The notes under the pieces are model-generated. The model saw nothing but the letters and a program-made list of their open reading frames with translations, was not told the origin of the DNA and did not search any database. Of a stretch of 64,000 nucleotides of DNA, positions 21,689 to 43,009 are shown piece by piece (position 1 is the stretch's first letter; every line of letters starts with the position of its first letter). This DNA is from a virus, in IMG/VR virus record IMGVR_UViG_3300005530_000004, positions 10,873 to 74,872 of that record, one strand, 5' to 3'. Position numbers and translations under genes: made by a program.

Positions 21689-21850
21689 GCCGAGCCATGC
21701 GGACTGCCCCCTAGGCCGACCAGCACAGCGCAGCAAGGCAAAACAATAAATATCTAACAATAAAATAACCTTCTCAACTCTTTTCTCTCGATTTCCCCAT
21801 TGCTTCTTTTTCACCGCAGAAATATCTAATAAATTTTCTGCCACAATAAA

Positions 21851-24845: not shown

Positions 24846-25283
24846 GTGGTAAATAAAATGTCAACTGATAATATGGCCAATCAACCAGATAATCTGGAGC
24901 AACAGCAGCAACAAATACAGCAATCAATACCAAAACATTCTAGCCGTGTATTTATGCTGGAACAATCTCAAAATGTAGATGTAGTGCCAGCATTTCAATA
25001 CGGACCAATAATTCCATTATTTAAAAGTACAACAATTGATAGGAACAATAAAAGTGAAAAGAAAATAGATCGACCATCAATGTGGCATACAGAGGAATTT
25101 GCCGATGAAATAATAAAGAAACTAGAAGAACACAACTATAATCCAGAAACTGATTATCTACTAGTAGCTGGTCACGTTGTACCATTAATAATATTTACTT
25201 GTACAGTAGTTTCTCAATGGGAGAATGTACAAGTATTATTTTGGTCCAGCGGCTTTCAGAAGTATGTTGTTCGTAGATTGTAG
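24846..25283 (+). CDS. hypothetical protein
   Basis: Packed ORF in replication module. Confidence 0.55.
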   Translation: MVNKMSTDNMANQPDNLEQQQQQIQQSIPKHSSRVFMLEQSQNVDVVPAFQYGPIIPLFKSTTIDRNNKSEKKIDRPSMWHTEEFADEIIKKLEEHNYNPETDYLLVAGHVVPLIIFTCTVVSQWENVQVLFWSSGFQKYVVRRL

Positions 25284-25338
25284 TGTTTGTTGTTTACGTT
25301 TTGTCTACTTTCGTTCACCTTTTGTTGGAGAAATAAAA

Positions 25339-34793: not shown

Positions 34794-34983
34794 ACAAAAT
34801 CAGCAATATAAAGCATATCTCGGCGATAGCGTCTACATAGATTTCGATGGATATGGTTTAGTATTAACGACTGAAAATGGTATAGAAACAACAAATAGAA
34901 TTTATCTTGAACCAGAAGTATTCAATAAATTAGAAGTGTATGTTAAAGAATTAAAGAAACAATTATTAGATGCGAGAGATTAA
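34786..34983 (+). CDS. conserved phage hypothetical protein
   Basis: YLGDSVY..FDGY..IYLEPEV; AAGGAG RBS. Confidence 0.6.
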   Translation: MDKQNQQYKAYLGDSVYIDFDGYGLVLTTENGIETTNRIYLEPEVFNKLEVYVKELKKQLLDARD

Positions 34984-35235
34984 ATAATGTATTTTTAAGT
35001 TTTTGGGGAAAGCTAGGGAATTAGCCGATATATGTACACTATATGTACATTTGTACACTATTTTACTGTACATTTGTCTATCTATCAAGAAAATAATATT
35101 TGGAAAATAAGAAAAATTTCCTGCTAAACAAAGTCAATTTTCTCGGGATTTTCAACAAAATATATTTGACAACGCAAGTATCATACCGGGAATGGTATTT
35201 GCGTCGCGGGCGCGGCCGCGCGAAGTAACACTGTC

Positions 35236-35329
35236 TCGGCGGATCGTCGGGCGACCGACGATCCGCCGACGATCCGCCGACGATCCGCCGACGATTCGGC
35301 CCGCTGCGCTCGATTAAATCGAGCGCAGC
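35236..35329 (+). repeat. GC-rich hairpin with GCGA tetraloop, 4x 11-bp tandem repeat, and second hairpin
   Basis: TCGGCGGATCGTCGG-GCGA-CCGACGATCCGCCGA; CCGACGATCCG x4 (35255-35298, last with one mismatch); GCTGCGCTCGAT-TAA-ATCGAGCGCAGC. Confidence 0.85.
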
Positions 35330-35368
35330 ACTTGCAAAAGATTCCTCAAAATAATCGTGGCAAGAGTA

Positions 35369-35397
35369 TTGACTTGCCGAATGAATCATGGAATACT
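35369..35397 (+). promoter_or_regulatory. sigma70-like early promoter
   Basis: TTGACT-N17-AATACT; GGCAAG..CTTGCC dyad over the -35; another TTGACA at about 35166. Confidence 0.5.
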
Positions 35398-35416
35398 TCA
35401 CCTAGTTGATTGATTG

Positions 35417-35430
35417 TGCTCTTTGAAAAC
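35417..35430 (+). promoter_or_regulatory. rrn-type boxA antitermination element
   Basis: TGCTCTTTGAAAAC about 20 nt downstream of the -10; matches the GYTCTTT(G/A)A boxA consensus. Confidence 0.65.
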
Positions 35431-35503
35431 TTGGTTAGCGCGGCAACGGTTCGACGGAGCTAGCTCCGTCCCTGCCTAATCAAGCTTGCAAGCCGCGTAC
35501 ACA

Positions 35504-35890
35504 ACCACTAGGCGTTTTATTGTGCGGCGTCGTGTTCAACAGGGCAACAGGGCAATGGTCGCCAAACAACACGACAACCACAATAAAACGGAGAGAACAA
35601 AGTGAACAAATACTTTGTAATTTGGACCTACGTTGCGAATTACGGAAACTTGGAAGTCTTCGCCGATAGTGCGGAAGAAGCTTCCAAGATCGTGCTTAGC
35701 TCTTTCAGCACTGATTTCTCGGAACGCGGAACGGTCTATGTTTTTTCCGAGCCGGAGTACATTTACAACGGCCGCGAAGAAACGAAAAAGCGGAAGCAAC
35801 AGAAAATCCAACAGGATATTGATAACAGACTCAGCCGATAAGCAACACGACAACACGACATGGACGCCGCACAATAAAACGCCTAGTGGT
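35504..35890. repeat. 28-bp perfect inverted repeat enclosing CDS 35602-35841
   Basis: ACCACTAGGCGTTTTATTGTGCGGCGTC (35504-35531) / GACGCCGCACAATAAAACGCCTAGTGGT (35863-35890). Confidence 0.95.
35602..35841 (+). CDS. small early hypothetical protein
   Basis: GGAGAG RBS, GTG start, GC-richer codons. Confidence 0.7.
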   Translation: MNKYFVIWTYVANYGNLEVFADSAEEASKIVLSSFSTDFSERGTVYVFSEPEYIYNGREETKKRKQQKIQQDIDNRLSR

Positions 35891-35896
35891 AACAAG

Positions 35897-36261
35897 TAGC
35901 TCACCAGTGATTTAATCCTGCCCTGTTGATTGTGTATCAAACGCCAAACAACACGACAACACGACAACACGAAGGATACAATAAAATGACATTGGCTAAA
36001 AAGCGTTTCGACGACAATGAAATCGTGAAAGAACACGAGCTGCCCTATCGACCATTCCGTGTCTCAGCCTCTTTGGAGAGTTTTTTTCTGCGGCTTGATG
36101 CCGCACAAATGACGCGCGAGAAATTAGAGTCTATCCAGACTCTAATCTGGCAAAAGCGCAAGGTAGAACACGATCTATGTTCCGCCGTGCAAAATGTTTT
36201 GAGGGGGCAATCTCGATAACAGGGCAACATAACAGGGCAGGATTAAATCACTGATGAGCTA
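35897..36261. repeat. 32-bp near-perfect inverted repeat enclosing CDS 35986-36219
   Basis: TAGCTCACCAGTGATTTAATCCTGCCCTGTTG (35897-35928) / TAACAGGGCAGGATTAAATCACTGATGAGCTA (36230-36261). Confidence 0.95.
35986..36219 (+). CDS. small early hypothetical protein
   Basis: AAGGA RBS, ACAATAAA immediately before ATG. Confidence 0.65.
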   Translation: MTLAKKRFDDNEIVKEHELPYRPFRVSASLESFFLRLDAAQMTREKLESIQTLIWQKRKVEHDLCSAVQNVLRGQSR

Positions 36262-36347
36262 GCAATCGTGCAACTAATTCGGTAAATTCTCGCGCCGAAT
36301 AAACTAACAATAAATGCGAGAAAACACTTTGTTTTGGAGACTGTACA

Positions 36348-37037
36348 GTGTCAACCACCCACAAGAATGCCCCCGCCAATCGTGACTCCGCGAAAGTTTC
36401 TGATCGGCCAGCCGAACAGAAAACCGAAACGGCCACGACGACGGAAAAGAGGCGTGGTCGTCCGGCCGGAAACGGCGAGAAAAAGCAAACCGGGAAAATC
36501 AAATATCCCGGAGTTGCGAACGGGGAAAAACTCTCCGTCGTGCCGACGGATTTCGACCCCGCCAAACACAAGCGATTATCTGCGGACAATTTCACTTCAC
36601 CCGCGCTTTTTGACGCGCACAAGGCGAAGCATTCCAAGCCGCGAAATTTCCACCCATTGCTTTTGAATGAGGCGGGCGAACCGGAAAACAAATTGTCGGA
36701 ATTCCCTTCTGATGTTTCGGTCGAAGTGAGTTACGATTATTCGCTTAACGGCGAAAAGATCGTCGCTTTCCGCCCGCGTCATTTTTCGGATCGTCGTGCG
36801 CTTGCAAAAGCTCTGGTTCCCGCGCTGCAAAAGCAAATCGCCGCGCTGGAAAAAATCAGCACGATGACGGACGATCAAATCGAAAAACTCGGCCGCAAGG
36901 AAGAGTTGAAGCGCGGCATCGAGAAGAAAATCAAGGAAGCGACCGGATCGACAATCAGCATGGAGATGCTCGAAAAGATGCTCGCAACTCTTCCGCCGGA
37001 GATGCAAGAAAAGTATGCTGCGGCGACGGCGGGCTAG
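36348..37037 (+). CDS. GC-rich early protein with AT-hook-like KRRGRP
   Basis: GGAGA RBS, GTG start, terminator downstream. Confidence 0.7.
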   Translation: MSTTHKNAPANRDSAKVSDRPAEQKTETATTTEKRRGRPAGNGEKKQTGKIKYPGVANGEKLSVVPTDFDPAKHKRLSADNFTSPALFDAHKAKHSKPRNFHPLLLNEAGEPENKLSEFPSDVSVEVSYDYSLNGEKIVAFRPRHFSDRRALAKALVPALQKQIAALEKISTMTDDQIEKLGRKEELKRGIEKKIKEATGSTISMEMLEKMLATLPPEMQEKYAAATAG

Positions 37038-37076
37038 TTGCTTGCGAATTACTTGTTTGGCGACAAGTTTTCTCGA

Positions 37077-37110
37077 CCCCTACGAAACAATTGTTTCGTA
37101 GGGGTTTTTT
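37077..37110 (+). terminator. Rho-independent terminator
   Basis: CCCCTACGAAAC-AATT-GTTTCGTAGGGG-TTTTTT. Confidence 0.85.
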
Positions 37111-37130
37111 CGTGCGCTGAAATAATACTT

Positions 37131-37236
37131 GCGTCGTCCAGGGAGCGAGCCAGCGTCGTCCAGGGAGCGAGCCAGCGTCGTCCAGGGAGCGAGCCAGCGT
37201 CGTCCAGGGAGCGAGCCAGCGTCGTCCAGGGAGCGA
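37131..37236. repeat. 22-bp tandem repeat x4.8 (iteron-like)
   Basis: GCGTCGTCCAGGGAGCGAGCCA x4 plus 18 bp, no spacers. Confidence 0.95.
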
Positions 37237-37601
37237 ATCCTAACAGCAGCTTGACGCGCTGCCGCGCTGTAGTTACACTGGCCGCACCGGGGCAATAGGC
37301 GCACCATGCGTCAAATAAAAATATTTATTTTCTCATTTAGCGGCGAGAAAAATAGATACAGTGAACAATAAAATGCCGCTTTTTCCACTGCACACTTCTA
37401 CTCCTCTTTTTTGGAGAAAATATAATCAAGCAATAATCCGACAATCCGACAATCCGACAATTCGACAATTATTTTTTTCTCTGAACAATAAAACATGCTG
37501 TAACATTGGAGTTGCTGCAAGCCGATCGGATCGACCAAAATAAATCATTCACGCAAATAATTCCTACGTAGGAATTAAAAATTGAAGGGATACAAAAGAC
37601 A

Positions 37602-38048
37602 ATGGAAATTACAGTAGAAAAAATTGCCAATTTACTCTTAAATCCAGAAAATCGTGATAAGATGCGAGAAACGAAAAATAGGGCTTGTGTAGAAATAGAA
37701 GAAGCCGCTAAGCAAATAGCTTTCCAGCGTAAAAAAATCGACGATGGTTTGATGCGACTCGCAGCCGCGAAAACGGACAAGGAAAATCCTAAGCATATCG
37801 AATCATATATAAAAAGCTTCAAGGAACGTCTTGAACGTGCTAAAAAAGAAATTGCAGAATGTCAAAAGCAAATTGAGATTCTGCAAGCTAGACTACCATC
37901 GGAAGCGCGGGCCGCTAAGGTAGAAAGTATCGAGCAAGAGCTAAAGCAATATGAAAGCAATGTTAATGCGCTGATTTCGCAAAAGGGAGAATGGACTAGG
38001 TTGCGAGATTTAATTTCGCAAGCCGAAGAATTAAGAAAATTGTCTTGA
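37602..38048 (+). CDS. coiled-coil hypothetical protein
   Basis: AAGGGA RBS, heptad pattern. Confidence 0.65.
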   Translation: MEITVEKIANLLLNPENRDKMRETKNRACVEIEEAAKQIAFQRKKIDDGLMRLAAAKTDKENPKHIESYIKSFKERLERAKKEIAECQKQIEILQARLPSEARAAKVESIEQELKQYESNVNALISQKGEWTRLRDLISQAEELRKLS

Positions 38049-38201
38049 ATATCTTGAAAACAGAAACAAAAACAAAATTCGAGAACCCGACATAATTCCG
38101 TACAGTAGTGTACAAAATTGGTACGGAATTTTGCCGCGTTTTCTGTCGAGTGGTATCGACGGCGCAGCACAATAAAACTTGTTTTGAAGAAAAGGAAGAA
38201 G

Positions 38202-38369
38202 ATGACATACAATCAATTACTAGATTGCATTGAAGCAATGACATTAGAGCAAAGAGAGTGTGATGTTACAGTAGAAATAGACGATGAATGCTATCCAGCT
38301 ACACTATATATTTCTGACGATAACCACGACTCTTTAGAAAAGGATCACCCTGTTTTGAAAGCAATGTAA
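38202..38369 (+). CDS. small acidic hypothetical protein
   Basis: AAGGA RBS before ATG 38202 (MTYNQLLD). Confidence 0.6.
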   Translation: MTYNQLLDCIEAMTLEQRECDVTVEIDDECYPATLYISDDNHDSLEKDHPVLKAM

Positions 38370-38371
38370 AT

Positions 38372-38424
38372 AACAGCCATGTTTCCGCCGCAACATAAAT
38401 GTTGCGGCGGTGGCGTAGGTTGTT
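38372..38424 (+). ncRNA. intergenic hairpin element copy A
   Basis: AACAGCCATGTTT-CCG[stem]CGG-TGGCGTAGGTTGTT. Confidence 0.75.
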
Positions 38425-38517
38425 TGCTATTTATGTTGTACTAGCAAGCCTACAATTCCGGCAAGTTGGAATTAAAAGAATACTTGCAATGAATCTTTTC
38501 CAATGAGGGAAGTTGTG

Positions 38518-38973
38518 ATGATCGCAACAAAAAAGACGAATGGACGTTTCTCACGTTTCTCGGAACAGGATGCAAATGATCTAGCAACGAATCTTGCTAA
38601 ATCTCTTTCGCATCAATTCTCTTTCCGCGAAAGCAAAGCTCTCGAAAAGAGAGTTGCAGCGTCTCCAGAGACGACAACAAAAAAGCTTCGATCTGGAAGC
38701 AAACTCTTTCAAATGCGGACAATTCTTTCGTCCGCCAAACGCGATAAATCTTTTCGCGTGAATCTGCAAGCCACAGAGCTTGCAGTAAAACTGTTCTCTC
38801 GCATGTTTTCTCGAAAACTTTGGCGAGAGAATATTGTTTATTCTCGTCGCGCCTGGTTGAACGGTTTTCCGGTCAACTATGACCAGCAAGATTTAATGCT
38901 GATTTGTCGTCGCGTTGCGAGAAGAATTGCGAGAAGAGTTGCTTCTAGCAATTGCTATGAAAATAGCAAATAG
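38518..38973 (+). CDS. basic hypothetical protein
   Basis: GAGGGA RBS, Arg-rich. Confidence 0.55.
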   Translation: MIATKKTNGRFSRFSEQDANDLATNLAKSLSHQFSFRESKALEKRVAASPETTTKKLRSGSKLFQMRTILSSAKRDKSFRVNLQATELAVKLFSRMFSRKLWRENIVYSRRAWLNGFPVNYDQQDLMLICRRVARRIARRVASSNCYENSK

Positions 38974-38983
38974 CTGATTCTGC

Positions 38984-39047
38984 AGACAGTCATGTCTCCG
39001 TGCTGTTATTTAACAGATAAATAACAGCACGGTGCCGTAGATTGTTT
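38984..39047 (+). ncRNA. intergenic hairpin element copy B
   Basis: AGACAGTCATGTCT-CCG[stem]CGG-TGCCGTAGATTGTTT. Confidence 0.75.
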
Positions 39048-39089
39048 TCTAGTTTCTGACACAATAAATTGAAGAAGGAGAGAAAGAAA

Positions 39090-39848
39090 ATGCAATTCGA
39101 CAATGAAAAATTAAAAAAGATTATTGAGAAGCATCGAAAATATTATCTTAATGAAGAAGGTGGAGAACGTGCAGATTTGTCCGGTGCAAATTTGTTTGGT
39201 GCAGATTTGTCACGTGCAAATTTGTCCGGTGCAGATTTGTCCGGTGCAAATTTGTCGCGTGCAAATTTGTTTGGTGCAAATTTGTTTGGTGCAGATTTGT
39301 TTGGTGCAAATTTGTCTGGTGCAGATTTGTCGCGCGCAAATTTGTCTGATGCAAATTTGTCGCGTGCAATTTTGTCCGGTGCAAATTTGTCGCGTGCAAA
39401 TTTGTTTGGTGCAAATTTGTCCGGTGCAGATTTGTCGCGTGCAAATTTGTTTGGTGCAAATTTGTCCGGTGCAGATTTGTTTGGTGCAAATTTGTTTGGT
39501 GCAAATTTGTTTGGTGCAGATTTGTCCGGTGCAAATTTGTTTGGTGCAAACTTATCCAGTGCAAAATTAAATGAAGAAACCAATATTACAGGAGAGTCTT
39601 GGAAGGAATATTTAGAAAAAGTTGTTCCGGCTTTACTGACAGCTGGCGGAAAAACAATCCAAGAAATTGTAGAATCTGGCTGTTGGAATTGCCATGAATG
39701 GCAAAATTGTCCAATGCACATCGCATTTGGAATTAATAATAAAGAGGACGGGCCAATTTTATTAAGGCCTAGGATCAAACAATTTATTCAATTATTTGAT
39801 TTTAATTTGATCCCATGTCCGGTTGTTCCATTTACTTCTGTTAATTAA
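39090..39848 (+). CDS. pentapeptide repeat protein
   Basis: About 26 A(D/N)L(S/F)(G/R) repeats; AAGGAG RBS. Confidence 0.92.
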
Positions 39849-39849
39849 C

Positions 39850-39910
39850 AAACAATCATGTTTCCGCGCCACGATATTTTTATATCGTGGCGCGATGACG
39901 TAGATTGTTT
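39850..39910 (+). ncRNA. intergenic hairpin element copy C
   Basis: AAACAATCATGTTTC-CG[stem]CG-ATGACGTAGATTGTTT. Confidence 0.75.
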
Positions 39911-39972
39911 TCTGGTTCTAGTTTCTAGTGGTTTCTGATTTCTGGCACAATAAAAGAAATGGAGATTGACAA

Positions 39973-40209
39973 ATGAAAGAAAAGATTGAATGTTTACTTC
40001 CGGATGATGGAAAAACTTGCGTCCGGCTACGCGGAAAGAATGGTAACTTTGTTACCATTTTGCCTTGTGGAACCGACGTAAATGGAAATGTTACAAATGT
40101 CGATTTGTGCAAACCGAATGGAGAAGTGTTGTATTGTGGAGTAGATATTGAACTGGTCAATATCTTTTGTGAAGAACTCGGATTGGAAAGAATCTTGCAG
40201 GAGAAGTGA
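39973..40209 (+). CDS. small hypothetical protein
   Basis: GGAGA RBS. Confidence 0.6.
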   Translation: MKEKIECLLPDDGKTCVRLRGKNGNFVTILPCGTDVNGNVTNVDLCKPNGEVLYCGVDIELVNIFCEELGLERILQEK

Positions 40210-40214
40210 AATAA

Positions 40215-40916
40215 ATGAATCGCGATGAATTGCTTGACACAATAAAAAGATTGCTTGCGCTTTCTAGCTCATCAAATGAGAATGAAAGCGCTTCGGCGCT
40301 TGCGCGAGCAAATAAATTGATGATGGAACATAATATTTCCATGTTTGATGTTAATAATGAAACATCAACATCAAATTATGATGAAATAGATGTTTATACC
40401 GCCGGGCGAGCATCATCAAAAGATCCGTATTTGTGCAGTATTCTGCAAGATTACTTCTTTGTGAAAGCGATTTATATTCCATCCGACGGTTATCAACGAA
40501 AAACCACGTTGAAATTTTTCGGTGATAAAGTAAATATTCAAATTGCTGTATATGTCTATAAAGTATTGGATATACTTTTTAGTGTTTACGCAGATGTAAA
40601 CAAGATTCAAGTAAAACATCGGCGAGCATATTATCAAGGATTATGCCACGGATTTAAGCGAAAACTTAAAGAAGAACGTGATGCAATGAATAGAAACATT
40701 GCAAGTAGTGGAACAGCACTTGTCTTAATTGATAAGGCGCTTGTCAAAGCATATAATAACAGATTTCCGACCACTAAAACAAAATCTGTTTCTAAAATGA
40801 CAATGAATGACCGTGCTTACAATCAAGGAATTGTTGACGCAAAAGAAATAAACTTGCGTCAAGGTATAGAAGGTACAAAAGGCACCACACAACCAAAGAT
40901 TCAAGATTGGAGTTGA
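40215..40916 (+). CDS. DUF2786-domain protein
   Basis: IKRLLALSSSSNENESASALARANKLMMEHNI; AYNQG..AKEINL. Confidence 0.8.
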   Translation: MNRDELLDTIKRLLALSSSSNENESASALARANKLMMEHNISMFDVNNETSTSNYDEIDVYTAGRASSKDPYLCSILQDYFFVKAIYIPSDGYQRKTTLKFFGDKVNIQIAVYVYKVLDILFSVYADVNKIQVKHRRAYYQGLCHGFKRKLKEERDAMNRNIASSGTALVLIDKALVKAYNNRFPTTKTKSVSKMTMNDRAYNQGIVDAKEINLRQGIEGTKGTTQPKIQDWS

Positions 40917-40918
40917 TA

Positions 40919-40975
40919 AAACAATCATGTCTCCGCCGTGCAGAATATTCTGCACGGCGACGGCGTAGGTTGTTT
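40919..40975 (+). ncRNA. intergenic hairpin element copy D
   Basis: AAACAATCATGTCTC-CGCCGTGCAGAATATTCTGCACGGCG-ACGGCGTAGGTTGTTT. Confidence 0.75.
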
Positions 40976-41008
40976 CTGGTTTCTGACACAATAAATGTAA
41001 GGGAGAAG

Positions 41009-42555
41009 ATGGTTATGTCTAATTCAATTCATTATTTCGGAATAACAATTAACAGAGAGGGTGATATAGTAGTAGATGATATTACTATATTTAGTCATAT
41101 AAGAGAAACAGCAAAATATTTAGGGTATCGAACACAAGATATACACCGAGATTCTCGTCTCCCTCAACTTGTAATTCTAATTGGCAATCAAAAAGATGCG
41201 ATCGCCTTTATTGAATTGATATAGGGGTGTAGAATTTCGCGGATTATGGCTAAAAAGATATTGCGTTATAGTTTCTGGTTTCTGATACAATAAATTGGAG
41301 AAGTGAAACAAATGGAAGAAAAAGAAAAATCAAGATTAGCAATTGGATTCAATTGTGAACAAAATTACACTCGTTCAATTTGGACTTTCAGCACTGATCC
41401 ACAAGAAGTTGCTAATCAATTTTCTATTGATGGTAATTCTACCACGTTAGATCAAATTCTACTTGTTTCTAATTCACAAGACAAAAATAATGGACCGATT
41501 GTAGTTAAGCATTGGAATCTCGACAAGGACTATAAATAATGGCAATTAAAACCCCATATTTAATTCAAAGATGCACAATACAGAAATTTAGTGGTAATCA
41601 AAAAGTTAGTGAATTTTTACAGTTTGATTACATGGGGTCGGCTGAATTTGAATTTGGTGCATTACCTAAATGTCTTCGAGAAATATTTTCTATTAAAAAT
41701 GACTTAAAAATCTTTAGAGTATTATATCTTAAAGATCTATATGTTCTTTGCACCGAGAGTAATATAAGAGAAATTGAAGTTTATTTATCAAGATTATGTG
41801 GATTAGGAGATATCCTAATCTTAAAAGAGCCAATCAGTATAGAAAAACTATTAAAAAAAGAAAAACCATATAGACGAGATAATTTTTGGATTGATATTGA
41901 AAATTATTTTTGTTTCTCTTTTGATAAAAAAGCTCTGCAAAATTTTAGAATTGCATTAGACAATTCCATTTCTTATATGGATAAGAATAAGTAGACAACA
42001 TGCACATTCGCGCTGTAATTGGCGGAAGATATACTAATGTTGTTTTCGATATTCCTGTTCCCATTGTAGATTGGCTATGGGAAGACTTACGCGAGAAGAT
42101 GTTGCAGAAAAGACGAATAAATGAAGATGCAATAAAACTAAAATTGGCAAGAGAAACATATGAAAAAGCTGCAAAGCTGCAAGCTGAAATTGCTGCCGAT
42201 TGTGCAGTAAAGTTTGCAGAGTATTCAGAAATTGATTCTGGATTGAAAGAAGCAGAAAAAGCGATGGGCGGAAGAGGAAAAAAACCGCGAGTGCGGTCGA
42301 GAAAAACTAATTACAAAAAGAAGTCAATGTATAAATTGAACGGAGAGAATTGAGATGTCTAAGATGATACTAACTGAATCAGACTTGAAATTACTTGAAA
42401 AATACAATGTTACACTTGATGGCGCAATAACTGAAGCCCCAGCACATTTTCAAAATAGTGATGCAGCGCTCGCTGGATATTGGTATGCAATGTACAAACA
42501 ACTCAAAAAAGAGTTTGATTATTACAAAAAGTTAATTGAAGATGGTAGAAAATAG
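41009..42555 (+). other. five small early hypothetical CDSs (41009-41224, 41303-41539, 41539-41994, 42000-42353, 42355-42555)
   Basis: GGAG-type RBSs, tight packing. Confidence 0.6.
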
Positions 42556-42591
42556 TCGATGATTTGAAATAACAATAAACAAATTTAATTT

Positions 42592-42640
42592 AATTCCCTA
42601 GATAATTATTATCTAGGGAATTATTTTTATTTTTATTTTT
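42592..42640 (+). terminator. terminator closing the early region
   Basis: AATTCCCTAGATAA-TTA-TTATCTAGGGAATT followed by U-rich tract. Confidence 0.75.
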
Positions 42641-42712
42641 GGACTAGTGTACAAGAAATTTTGCCGCTTTTGAAGGTGTGGAACGATGGTCATTTATAGT
42701 GAGGGTTTAACG

Positions 42713-43009
42713 ATGGTCGTTTGGAAATATGATATTTTATTAAAGTCTGGAATTCAAAAGATAAGGATGCCTAAAGGTGCAAAAGTATTAACAGCACAAG
42801 TGCAAAGAGAAAATGATGGTTATGACGATATTAAAATCTGGTGCTTAATTGATAATGGACAAGCAGAATTAGAATTAGTAGATCGACATTTTATTTTACG
42901 TGGAACTGGTCATTCATTCGCAGTTTCAAATAGTTATCCATTAAATTATATTGGAACAGTGCAAATTGATTATAGTGTTTGGCATATATTTGAAATTATA
43001 GGGGTGTGA
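42713..43009 (+). CDS. conserved phage hypothetical protein
   Basis: VWKY..MPKGA..GTGH..YIGTVQ..VWHIFE. Confidence 0.65.
   Translation: MVVWKYDILLKSGIQKIRMPKGAKVLTAQVQRENDGYDDIKIWCLIDNGQAELELVDRHFILRGTGHSFAVSNSYPLNYIGTVQIDYSVWHIFEIIGV

Follow-up and report, generated by a model that had tools for sequence, protein, structure and literature searches.

The window analysed here, a 64,000-nucleotide (nt) stretch corresponding to bases 10873–74872 of the 74,872-base-pair (bp) IMG/VR virus record IMGVR_UViG_3300005530_000004, carries four copies of a long, three-tiered hairpin that punctuates a row of accessory genes in an uncultured soil phage. The hairpin folds preferentially on the + strand, its paired positions covary, its copies sit at gene ends and its conservation exceeds that of the neighbouring genes. 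With about even confidence, and on the basis of computational analysis, we propose that the hairpins may serve as + strand messenger RNA signals for a double-strand-specific ribonuclease, probably host RNase III, and at the same time as 3′ stabilisers. The sequence family is new; the kind of element is already known from phages T7 and SP82. The four copies are:

Copy A, 38372–38425, + strand: hairpin 2 nt past the stop codon of a 55-amino-acid (aa) gene; upper stem CCGCCGCAACA/UGUUGCGGCGG; loop UAAA; no TTTCTG..ACAATAAA tail after it.
Copy B, 38985–39047, + strand: hairpin 11 nt past the stop codon of a 151-aa gene; upper stem of 15 bp; loop ACAGA.
Copy C, 39851–39910, + strand: hairpin 2 nt past the stop codon of a pentapeptide-repeat gene; upper stem of 13 bp; loop UUUU.
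Copy D, 40920–40975, + strand: hairpin 3 nt past the stop codon of a DUF2786/DUF7168 gene; upper stem of 11 bp; loop AUAU.

All four copies were located where a first-pass annotation of the stretch had placed them, and the conserved lower stem with G-U pairs and the invariant bulged A that it described were confirmed at each position. Exact matches to the 5′ flank RACARYCATGTYTCCG (at 38372, 38985, 39851 and 40920) and to the 3′ flank CGTAGRTTGTTT (at 38414, 39036, 39899 and 40964) enclose unrelated, fully paired upper stems. From base to tip, the hairpin consists of a lower stem of 7–8 bp (AACARYC/GRUUGUU), the invariant bulged A, a 5-bp middle stem (AUGUY:GVCGU) with an invariant U-G pair, a 1×1 or 2×2 mismatch and an upper stem of 11–15 bp whose sequence differs in every copy. 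The upper stems are thus variable and fully paired as had been claimed, but they are closed by ordinary loops of 4–5 nt and are not nearly loopless. The total helix of 23–28 bp, divided into three tiers by the mismatch and the bulged A, has the form of an RNase III-type substrate, that is, an irregular hairpin of at least about 20 bp whose upper and lower stems are split by a helix defect. The copies start 2–11 nt downstream of stop codons (the earlier estimate of about 1–10 nt holds for A, C and D but not for B, at 11 nt), and 39–92 nt separate their 3′ ends from the next start codon.

Folding and covariation both set the copies apart from shuffled sequence. Predicted energies of copies A–D range from −32 to −37 kcal/mol (z values of −6.0 to −8.4, with none of 200 shuffles equal). 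When these copies are aligned with a fifth from a metagenome contig, described below, 94% of cells are paired and 10 pairs are changed on both sides; no shuffle among 500 matches the observed percentage paired or the covariation score, six of 500 match the count of double-changed pairs, and sliding the pairing partners lowers pairing to 31–58%. The covariance model, a check proposed in the first-pass annotation, finds only four copies in the whole genome (74,872 bp), as does a combined pattern applied separately. The + strand of copies A–D is 4.6–9.3 kcal/mol more stable than the − strand, because the conserved G-U pairs can pair on the + strand only, and covariance model scores of 77–84 bits on the + strand compare with 33–44 bits or no score on the − strand. 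This preference in energy and in model score argues that the structure is selected on the transcribed strand, in line with the earlier view of a + strand RNA-level element.

The apical loops (UAAA, ACAGA, UUUU, AUAU and, in the fifth copy, GGCAGG) are not conserved, so any recognition must sit at the helix base. A fixed base under a variable top is what would be expected if an enzyme or protein recognised the geometry together with a few bases close to the scissile bond. No significant match to the upper-stem sequences was obtained in the rest of the genome; they are therefore neither guides nor copies of other sites. An Rfam search over 34800–43000 returned only a chance microRNA match (E = 0.21), which leaves the hairpin in no Rfam family.

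The fifth true copy lies on the minus strand of a 1,358-bp metagenome contig (L097), the only real one among 21 metagenome matches to the exact-flank patterns. It reads AATAATC-ATGTT-T-CCGGACTATT-GGCAGG-AATAGTCCGG-T-GGCGT-A-GGTTGTT. Its 3′ flank CGGTGGCGTAGGTTGTTT is identical to that of copy A at 18 of 18 positions, and a C-to-U change in its lower stem converts a C-G pair into U-G, with pairing kept. The contig also encodes homologues of two window genes, the 151-aa gene ahead of copy B (49% identity over 61 residues) and a 117-aa gene (35% identity); at the DNA level, homologous genes show ∼75–77% identity in short pieces only. Judged from these sequences, the hairpin base is far better conserved than the surrounding genes.

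Gene content between these two anchor genes differs in this one relative, the outcome expected in the first-pass annotation from a comparison of related phages: the window has ∼3 kb with six genes between them, L097 three small, unrelated genes in ∼0.7 kb. At the L097 junction that corresponds to copy B, past the 151-aa homologue, AACAATC is joined directly to GTAGGTTGTTT in a hairpin-less scar from which the inner 36–45 nt are gone with zero extra bases. A third L097 junction retains ACGTAGGTTG, whose TAG is the stop codon of the gene, and the L097 scars show no significant folding. The L097 leaders contain CCATTTAAGGAAAGG in place of the TTTCTG..ACAATAAA tail; hairpin and tail are therefore separate modules. 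A hairpin base kept nearly letter for letter while genes diverge or are replaced provides a useful marker of gene-cassette turnover among phages of this group. Elsewhere in the window, at 25272–25300, CGTAGATTGTAG is followed by TGTTTGTTGTTT at the end of the open reading frame 24846–25283; this arrangement, similar to the L097 scar CGTAGGTTGTTTTGGTTGTTTG, may represent a junction of that type that has decayed.

Searches for further relatives returned little. Megablast of 5 kb against 50,697 phage records gave no match, and the best DNA polymerase match in these records is 35% identical, with no cultured relative. No close relatives came from IMG/VR scans seeded with the proteins of the DUF2786 gene, the DNA polymerase or the 117-aa gene, and an alignment-seeded scan yielded 63 loci whose DNA polymerases are at most 45% identical. 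The element occurs in none of these 63 distant loci, and a scan of them, with the window as positive control, detected no family of hairpins in which the flanks are conserved and the stem varies. Exact-flank DNA patterns gave 17 and 18 matches in IMG/VR and 9 in 185,579 bacterial and archaeal genomes, all by chance. The best relatives in protein searches are DNA polymerases (P0002–P0009) 60–75% identical, on Logan contigs of up to 68.5 kb.

The 5′ flank also contains a conserved AUG (AUC-AUG-UYU-CCG), at 38379, 38992, 39858 and 40927 and at 757–755 on the minus strand of L097. It opens mini-frames of 8–26 codons (Met-Phe/Ser-Pro...) that run into the hairpin and whose stop positions are not conserved; no Shine-Dalgarno sequence precedes them and the upstream stop codon is 5–18 nt away. 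Re-initiation at this AUG is conceivable.

The proposed processing reading draws on the arrangement of the row in which the hairpins are placed:

Promoter match, 37251–37279, + strand: sigma-70-like, TTGACG-17-TACACT, upstream of the row and after a terminator at 37075–37106.
Punctuated gene row, 38202–42555, + strand: 55 aa, copy A, 151 aa, copy B, pentapeptide-repeat 252 aa, copy C, 78 aa and DUF2786/DUF7168 233 aa, copy D, 69 aa, tail only, then 75, 151, 117 and 66 aa.
Terminator, 42591–42623, + strand: canonical intrinsic terminator closing the row, a 15-bp stem followed by TTTTTATTTT.

The promoter match at 37251–37279 is presumed to start the transcript of the row. Because there is no internal sigma-70 promoter and a single canonical terminator at 42591, we infer that the accessory genes form one operon, co-transcribed from near 37251 to 42591. 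A double-strand-specific endoribonuclease, most likely host RNase III, would read the fixed helix base and cut on the 3′ side near CGU-A-GR, as at T7 and SP82 sites with internal loops. The hairpin would then be left as a 3′ cap shielding the upstream message from 3′ exonucleases, and the downstream message would be freed with a defined 5′ end, GUAGRUUGUUU..., followed by its own leader and strong ribosome-binding site. In this way the operon would be divided into separately stable messages. In four of the five copies the stop codon of the upstream gene falls within the lower stem or 0–3 nt away from it, so that a ribosome terminating there would melt the conserved base; this suggests that processing may be coupled to translation. 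Short conserved flanks are present at each junction and might for that reason also serve as crossover points for gene gain and loss; L097 is consistent with this role.

Such an arrangement has precedents. In T7, cutting once, on the 3′ side, would keep the hairpin as protection at the 3′ end. The T7 early sites (R0.3 to R1.3) resemble the present copies in being irregular hairpins of at least two helical turns, with upper and lower stems split by a defect, placed between genes of one early transcript. They differ in that the helix defects here are much smaller and the perfect upper stems longer, sequence similarity is lacking, and the present phage probably infects another group of hosts. Of the likeness to T7 early RNase III sites claimed in the first-pass annotation, the two-tier geometry of phage RNase III sites has stood, while cleavage here is predicted only. 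A single cut on the downstream side is reported both for T7 substrates that contain an internal bubble and for SP82 substrates that contain internal loops (PMC1935012); it would keep the hairpin on the upstream message.

The Bs-RNase III sites of SP82 and SPO1 are likewise hairpins that recur between cistrons among early accessory genes, with a base that is conserved and a top that varies more, in phages of a low-GC, Gram-positive-like host. Three repeated intercistronic hairpins were located and aligned in the SPO1 terminal repeat; in their folds an internal defect separates a lower stem of 7 bp from an upper stem of 10 bp, the same three-part layout as here. The conserved words GUUGCUAGU...AUGGAGCC around the upper stem were derived in this work from these three intergenic copies. 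The 8-mer GUAGGUUG forms the 5′ foot of the SPO1 gp57–gp56 hairpin (L121 11848–11855, minus strand) and the 3′ foot here, on opposite arms; this sharing is probably due to chance. If RNase III or a similar enzyme cuts the present element, it would be a compact substrate with a fixed base, containing a bulged A and G-U pairs, under a variable top, in a host group for which RNase III substrate rules are poorly known. It would add to the picture from T7 and SP82 of many phage lineages independently punctuating their accessory operons with hairpins of this sort.

Several observations weigh against processing at these hairpins. The SPO1 words GUUGCUAGU...AUGGAGCC are not found in the window and the covariance model (R1) gives no significant match in the SPO1 terminal repeat; the copies are therefore not linked by sequence to any proven substrate. 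Defects in the helix (a 1×1 or 2×2 mismatch and a one-base bulge) are smaller than the internal loops of T7, and the U-rich 3′ strand (GRUUGUUUU/CU) permits some termination. The hairpin-less L097 scars keep CGTAGGTTG, a word that may thus have a role independent of the helix. The family has five members, four of them in one genome. Finally, three rhizosphere metatranscriptome runs (X1–X3) contain parts of the phage, and their contigs, which cannot show ends, cover only 35534–37075 and 37865–38342, not 38372–41294.

Contigs of two runs lie between the first copy and another hairpin upstream of it:

Other hairpin, 38081–38143, + strand: long and imperfect, 20 bp, of a different sequence family, between a 148-aa gene and the 55-aa gene.

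In two runs a contig starts at 38147, 4 nt past this hairpin, and ends at 38338 or 38342, ∼30 nt before copy A, with no contig downstream of A. The contig upstream of the 38081–38143 hairpin ends at 38031. Since the depth is 2–3 and contigs cannot show true ends, their limits offer only a weak hint of an RNA species bounded by the 38081–38143 hairpin and copy A.

Between hairpin and gene, three of the four junctions continue into a leader that contains the tail TTTCTGRYACAATAAA, as the first-pass annotation had noted, and its further claim of a junction with the tail only, at 41271–41294, was borne out. The tail occurs at 39053, 39939, 40980 and 41279 (tail only) and, with one mismatch, at 21835, against a chance expectation of 0.5:

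Leader after B, 39048–39089, + strand: GTTTCTR words, TTTCTGACACAATAAA (39053–39068), strong Shine-Dalgarno sequence, start codon at 39090.
Leader after C, 39911–39972, + strand: five GTTTCTR-like words, TTTCTGGCACAATAAA (39939–39954), Shine-Dalgarno sequence, start codon at 39973.
Leader after D, 40976–41014, + strand: GTTTCTGGTTTCTGACACAATAAA (tail at 40980–40995), Shine-Dalgarno sequence, start codon at 41015.
Tail-only junction, 41271–41311, + strand: GTTTCTGGTTTCTGATACAATAAA, Shine-Dalgarno sequence, start codon at 41312; no hairpin.
Remote tail copy, 21835–21850, + strand: TTTCTGCCACAATAAA, directly adjoining the ATG of an SNF2 helicase gene.

This tail lends itself to a different explanation of the junctions. 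The copies could be leaky intrinsic terminators or attenuators that step down transcription, with TGnCACAAT in the tail acting as a weak extended −10, the whole forming a cassette akin to the promoter early stem-loop (PeSL) elements of T4-like phages; we consider this rather unlikely. A very stable GC-rich stem is indeed followed by the U-rich strand GRUUGUUUUCU, and the RNA contigs stop ∼30 nt before copy A with none downstream, but the U-tract is broken by a G and is located within the lower stem. TransTerm-like tail scores of −2.3 to −3.1 are borderline, whereas the clean terminators elsewhere in the phage, at 37075 and 42591, score −4.3 and −5.8, and the terminator scan does not call copies A–D. 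Moreover, independent terminators need no constant flanks of 16–18 nt, bulged A or G-U pairs across lineages whose proteins share 35–49% identity. On the promoter side, TGATACAAT at 41284–41291 makes a good extended −10. However, there is no −35 box, the distance from hairpin to tail differs by over 20 nt between copies, the tail is missing after copy A and the L097 copy, and ACAATAAA adjoins an ATG at four sites, which therefore have no room for a transcription start.

A PeSL is built on a consensus sigma-70 early promoter, joined to a stem-loop and a Shine-Dalgarno sequence (PMC2839356). As in PeSLs (PMC2839356, PMC4122927), a repeated stem-loop/leader/Shine-Dalgarno motif here flanks orphan genes in a plastic region, with the Shine-Dalgarno sequence and start codon at its 3′ end; the one relative recovered, L097, has different genes between two shared anchors. 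Unlike in PeSLs, hairpin and leader are separable modules, and the promoter scan found no consensus sigma-70 promoter inside the motif in any copy or tail. For want of this promoter the hairpin element is not a strict PeSL. The gene shuffling at cassette boundaries suggested in the first-pass annotation finds partial support in that one relative.

The ACAATAAA word is overrepresented, with 28 occurrences where 9.5 would be expected, and 25 of these are on the + strand (for example at window positions 21843, 25839, 35978 and 37365). At the four sites where it adjoins an ATG there is no Shine-Dalgarno sequence (ACAATAAAATG); at six other sites it stands 14–25 nt before the start codon, ahead of a Shine-Dalgarno sequence. 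It resembles a leader or translation word acting in RNA more than a promoter, and its position at the ATG fits an RNA-level leader word better than a promoter. At the tail-only junction (41271–41305), UUUCUGAU pairs with AUUGGAGA of the ribosome-binding site around the loop ACAAUAA (z of −2.6, with none of 200 shuffles equal); after copies B, C and D, pairing between tail and ribosome-binding site is weak and not significant. In the window at 35513–35590, CACAATAAAACG is perfectly paired with CGTTTTATTGTG, 54 nt upstream, so that in the neighbouring operon the ACAATAAA word forms one side of a long helix. A boxA-like reading of the tail was rejected: the real boxA, TGCTCTTTGAAAA, lies at 35417, and the tail shares only scattered letters with it.

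The conserved helix base (mismatch, middle stem with G-U pairs, bulged A and CGUAGRUUG) might alternatively be the operator of a sequence-specific RNA-binding protein, encoded by phage or host, that governs stability or translation of the adjoining genes without RNase III cleavage, which appears distinctly improbable. Protein sites typically show invariance of the sort seen here in the non-Watson–Crick features and in a 9-nt word, which persists in L097 without the hairpin. Yet there are four sites only, no Rfam family matches and no candidate binder is tied to the element. The antiterminator function and the ANTAR or CsrA-like binding raised in the first-pass annotation find no pointer in the copies, whose unconserved loops show neither GGA nor the paired hexaloops of ANTAR targets.

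It is noteworthy that the hairpins also recall palindromes handled at the DNA level. REP-type (repetitive extragenic palindromic) intercistronic 3′ stabilisers occur in enterobacterial operons such as malE–malF. Like them, the present palindrome is placed just past a stop codon within an operon, where it could protect the upstream message, and has GTAG beside the hairpin foot. The differences are that it is not a genome-wide repeat (there are four copies, not many near-identical ones), the inner sequences are unrelated, and it is found in this phage lineage only, with no match in the genome to the REP-associated tyrosine transposase (RAYT; Y1 transposase, PF01797). As for integron attC sites, PF00589 is likewise unmatched, and by inspection AACAAYC/GRTTGTT do not fit RYYYAAC/GTTRRRY. 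A two-layer recombination module, in which AACAAYC...CGTAGRTTG would mark every cassette boundary while integron- or REP-like exchange on folded single strands precisely inserted or removed a self-complementary inner segment between C and GTAG, with no recombinase supplied by the phage, seems highly improbable to us; if it existed, the hairpin-less L097 junction and the different genes between the anchors would be its footprints. Similarly slim is the prospect that the hairpin acts in DNA, as a recombination site folded from a single strand or as a small attC- or REP-like mobile palindrome, to insert, delete or exchange cassettes. The conserved base, extrahelical base and variable centre right after stop codons recall attC, GTAG at the foot recalls REP elements, and L097 has an exact empty junction AACAATC/GTAGGTTGTTT with different genes between shared anchors. 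Against this, the genome encodes no tyrosine recombinase or Y1 transposase, and the inner sequences all differ from one another, which is not what a mobile element would leave. In DNA the G-U pairs would become mismatches, the − strand folds less well, and searches of 185,579 bacterial and archaeal genomes and of IMG/VR gave no copies. The single scar could equally be a simple deletion.

The processing reading relies on a host enzyme, and the genome has no match to a phage-encoded RNase III. It also has none to a T7-like RNA polymerase, a weak negative since control genomes likewise lack matches to that family. The genome ends in 100-bp direct terminal repeats, has a GC content of ∼33% and carries every gene on the + strand. 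Strong AGGAG-type ribosome-binding sites and the boxA-like TGCTCTTTGAAAA at 35417 suggest a Bacillota-like host.

Within the punctuated row, 8 of the 10 genes have no Pfam or PHROG match, the two assigned ones being the pentapeptide-repeat and DUF2786/DUF7168 genes. The promoter scan reports no sigma-70 promoter between the copies. A near-consensus sigma-70 match (TTGATA-17-TATAAT, 11 of 12 positions) is located at 40729–40757, within the 3′ part of the DUF2786/DUF7168 gene and ∼160 nt upstream of copy D. The pentapeptide-repeat gene contains, at 39150–39560, very regular GGTGCAAATTTGTC/GGTGCAGATTTGTC DNA units that look like recently expanded tandem repeats.

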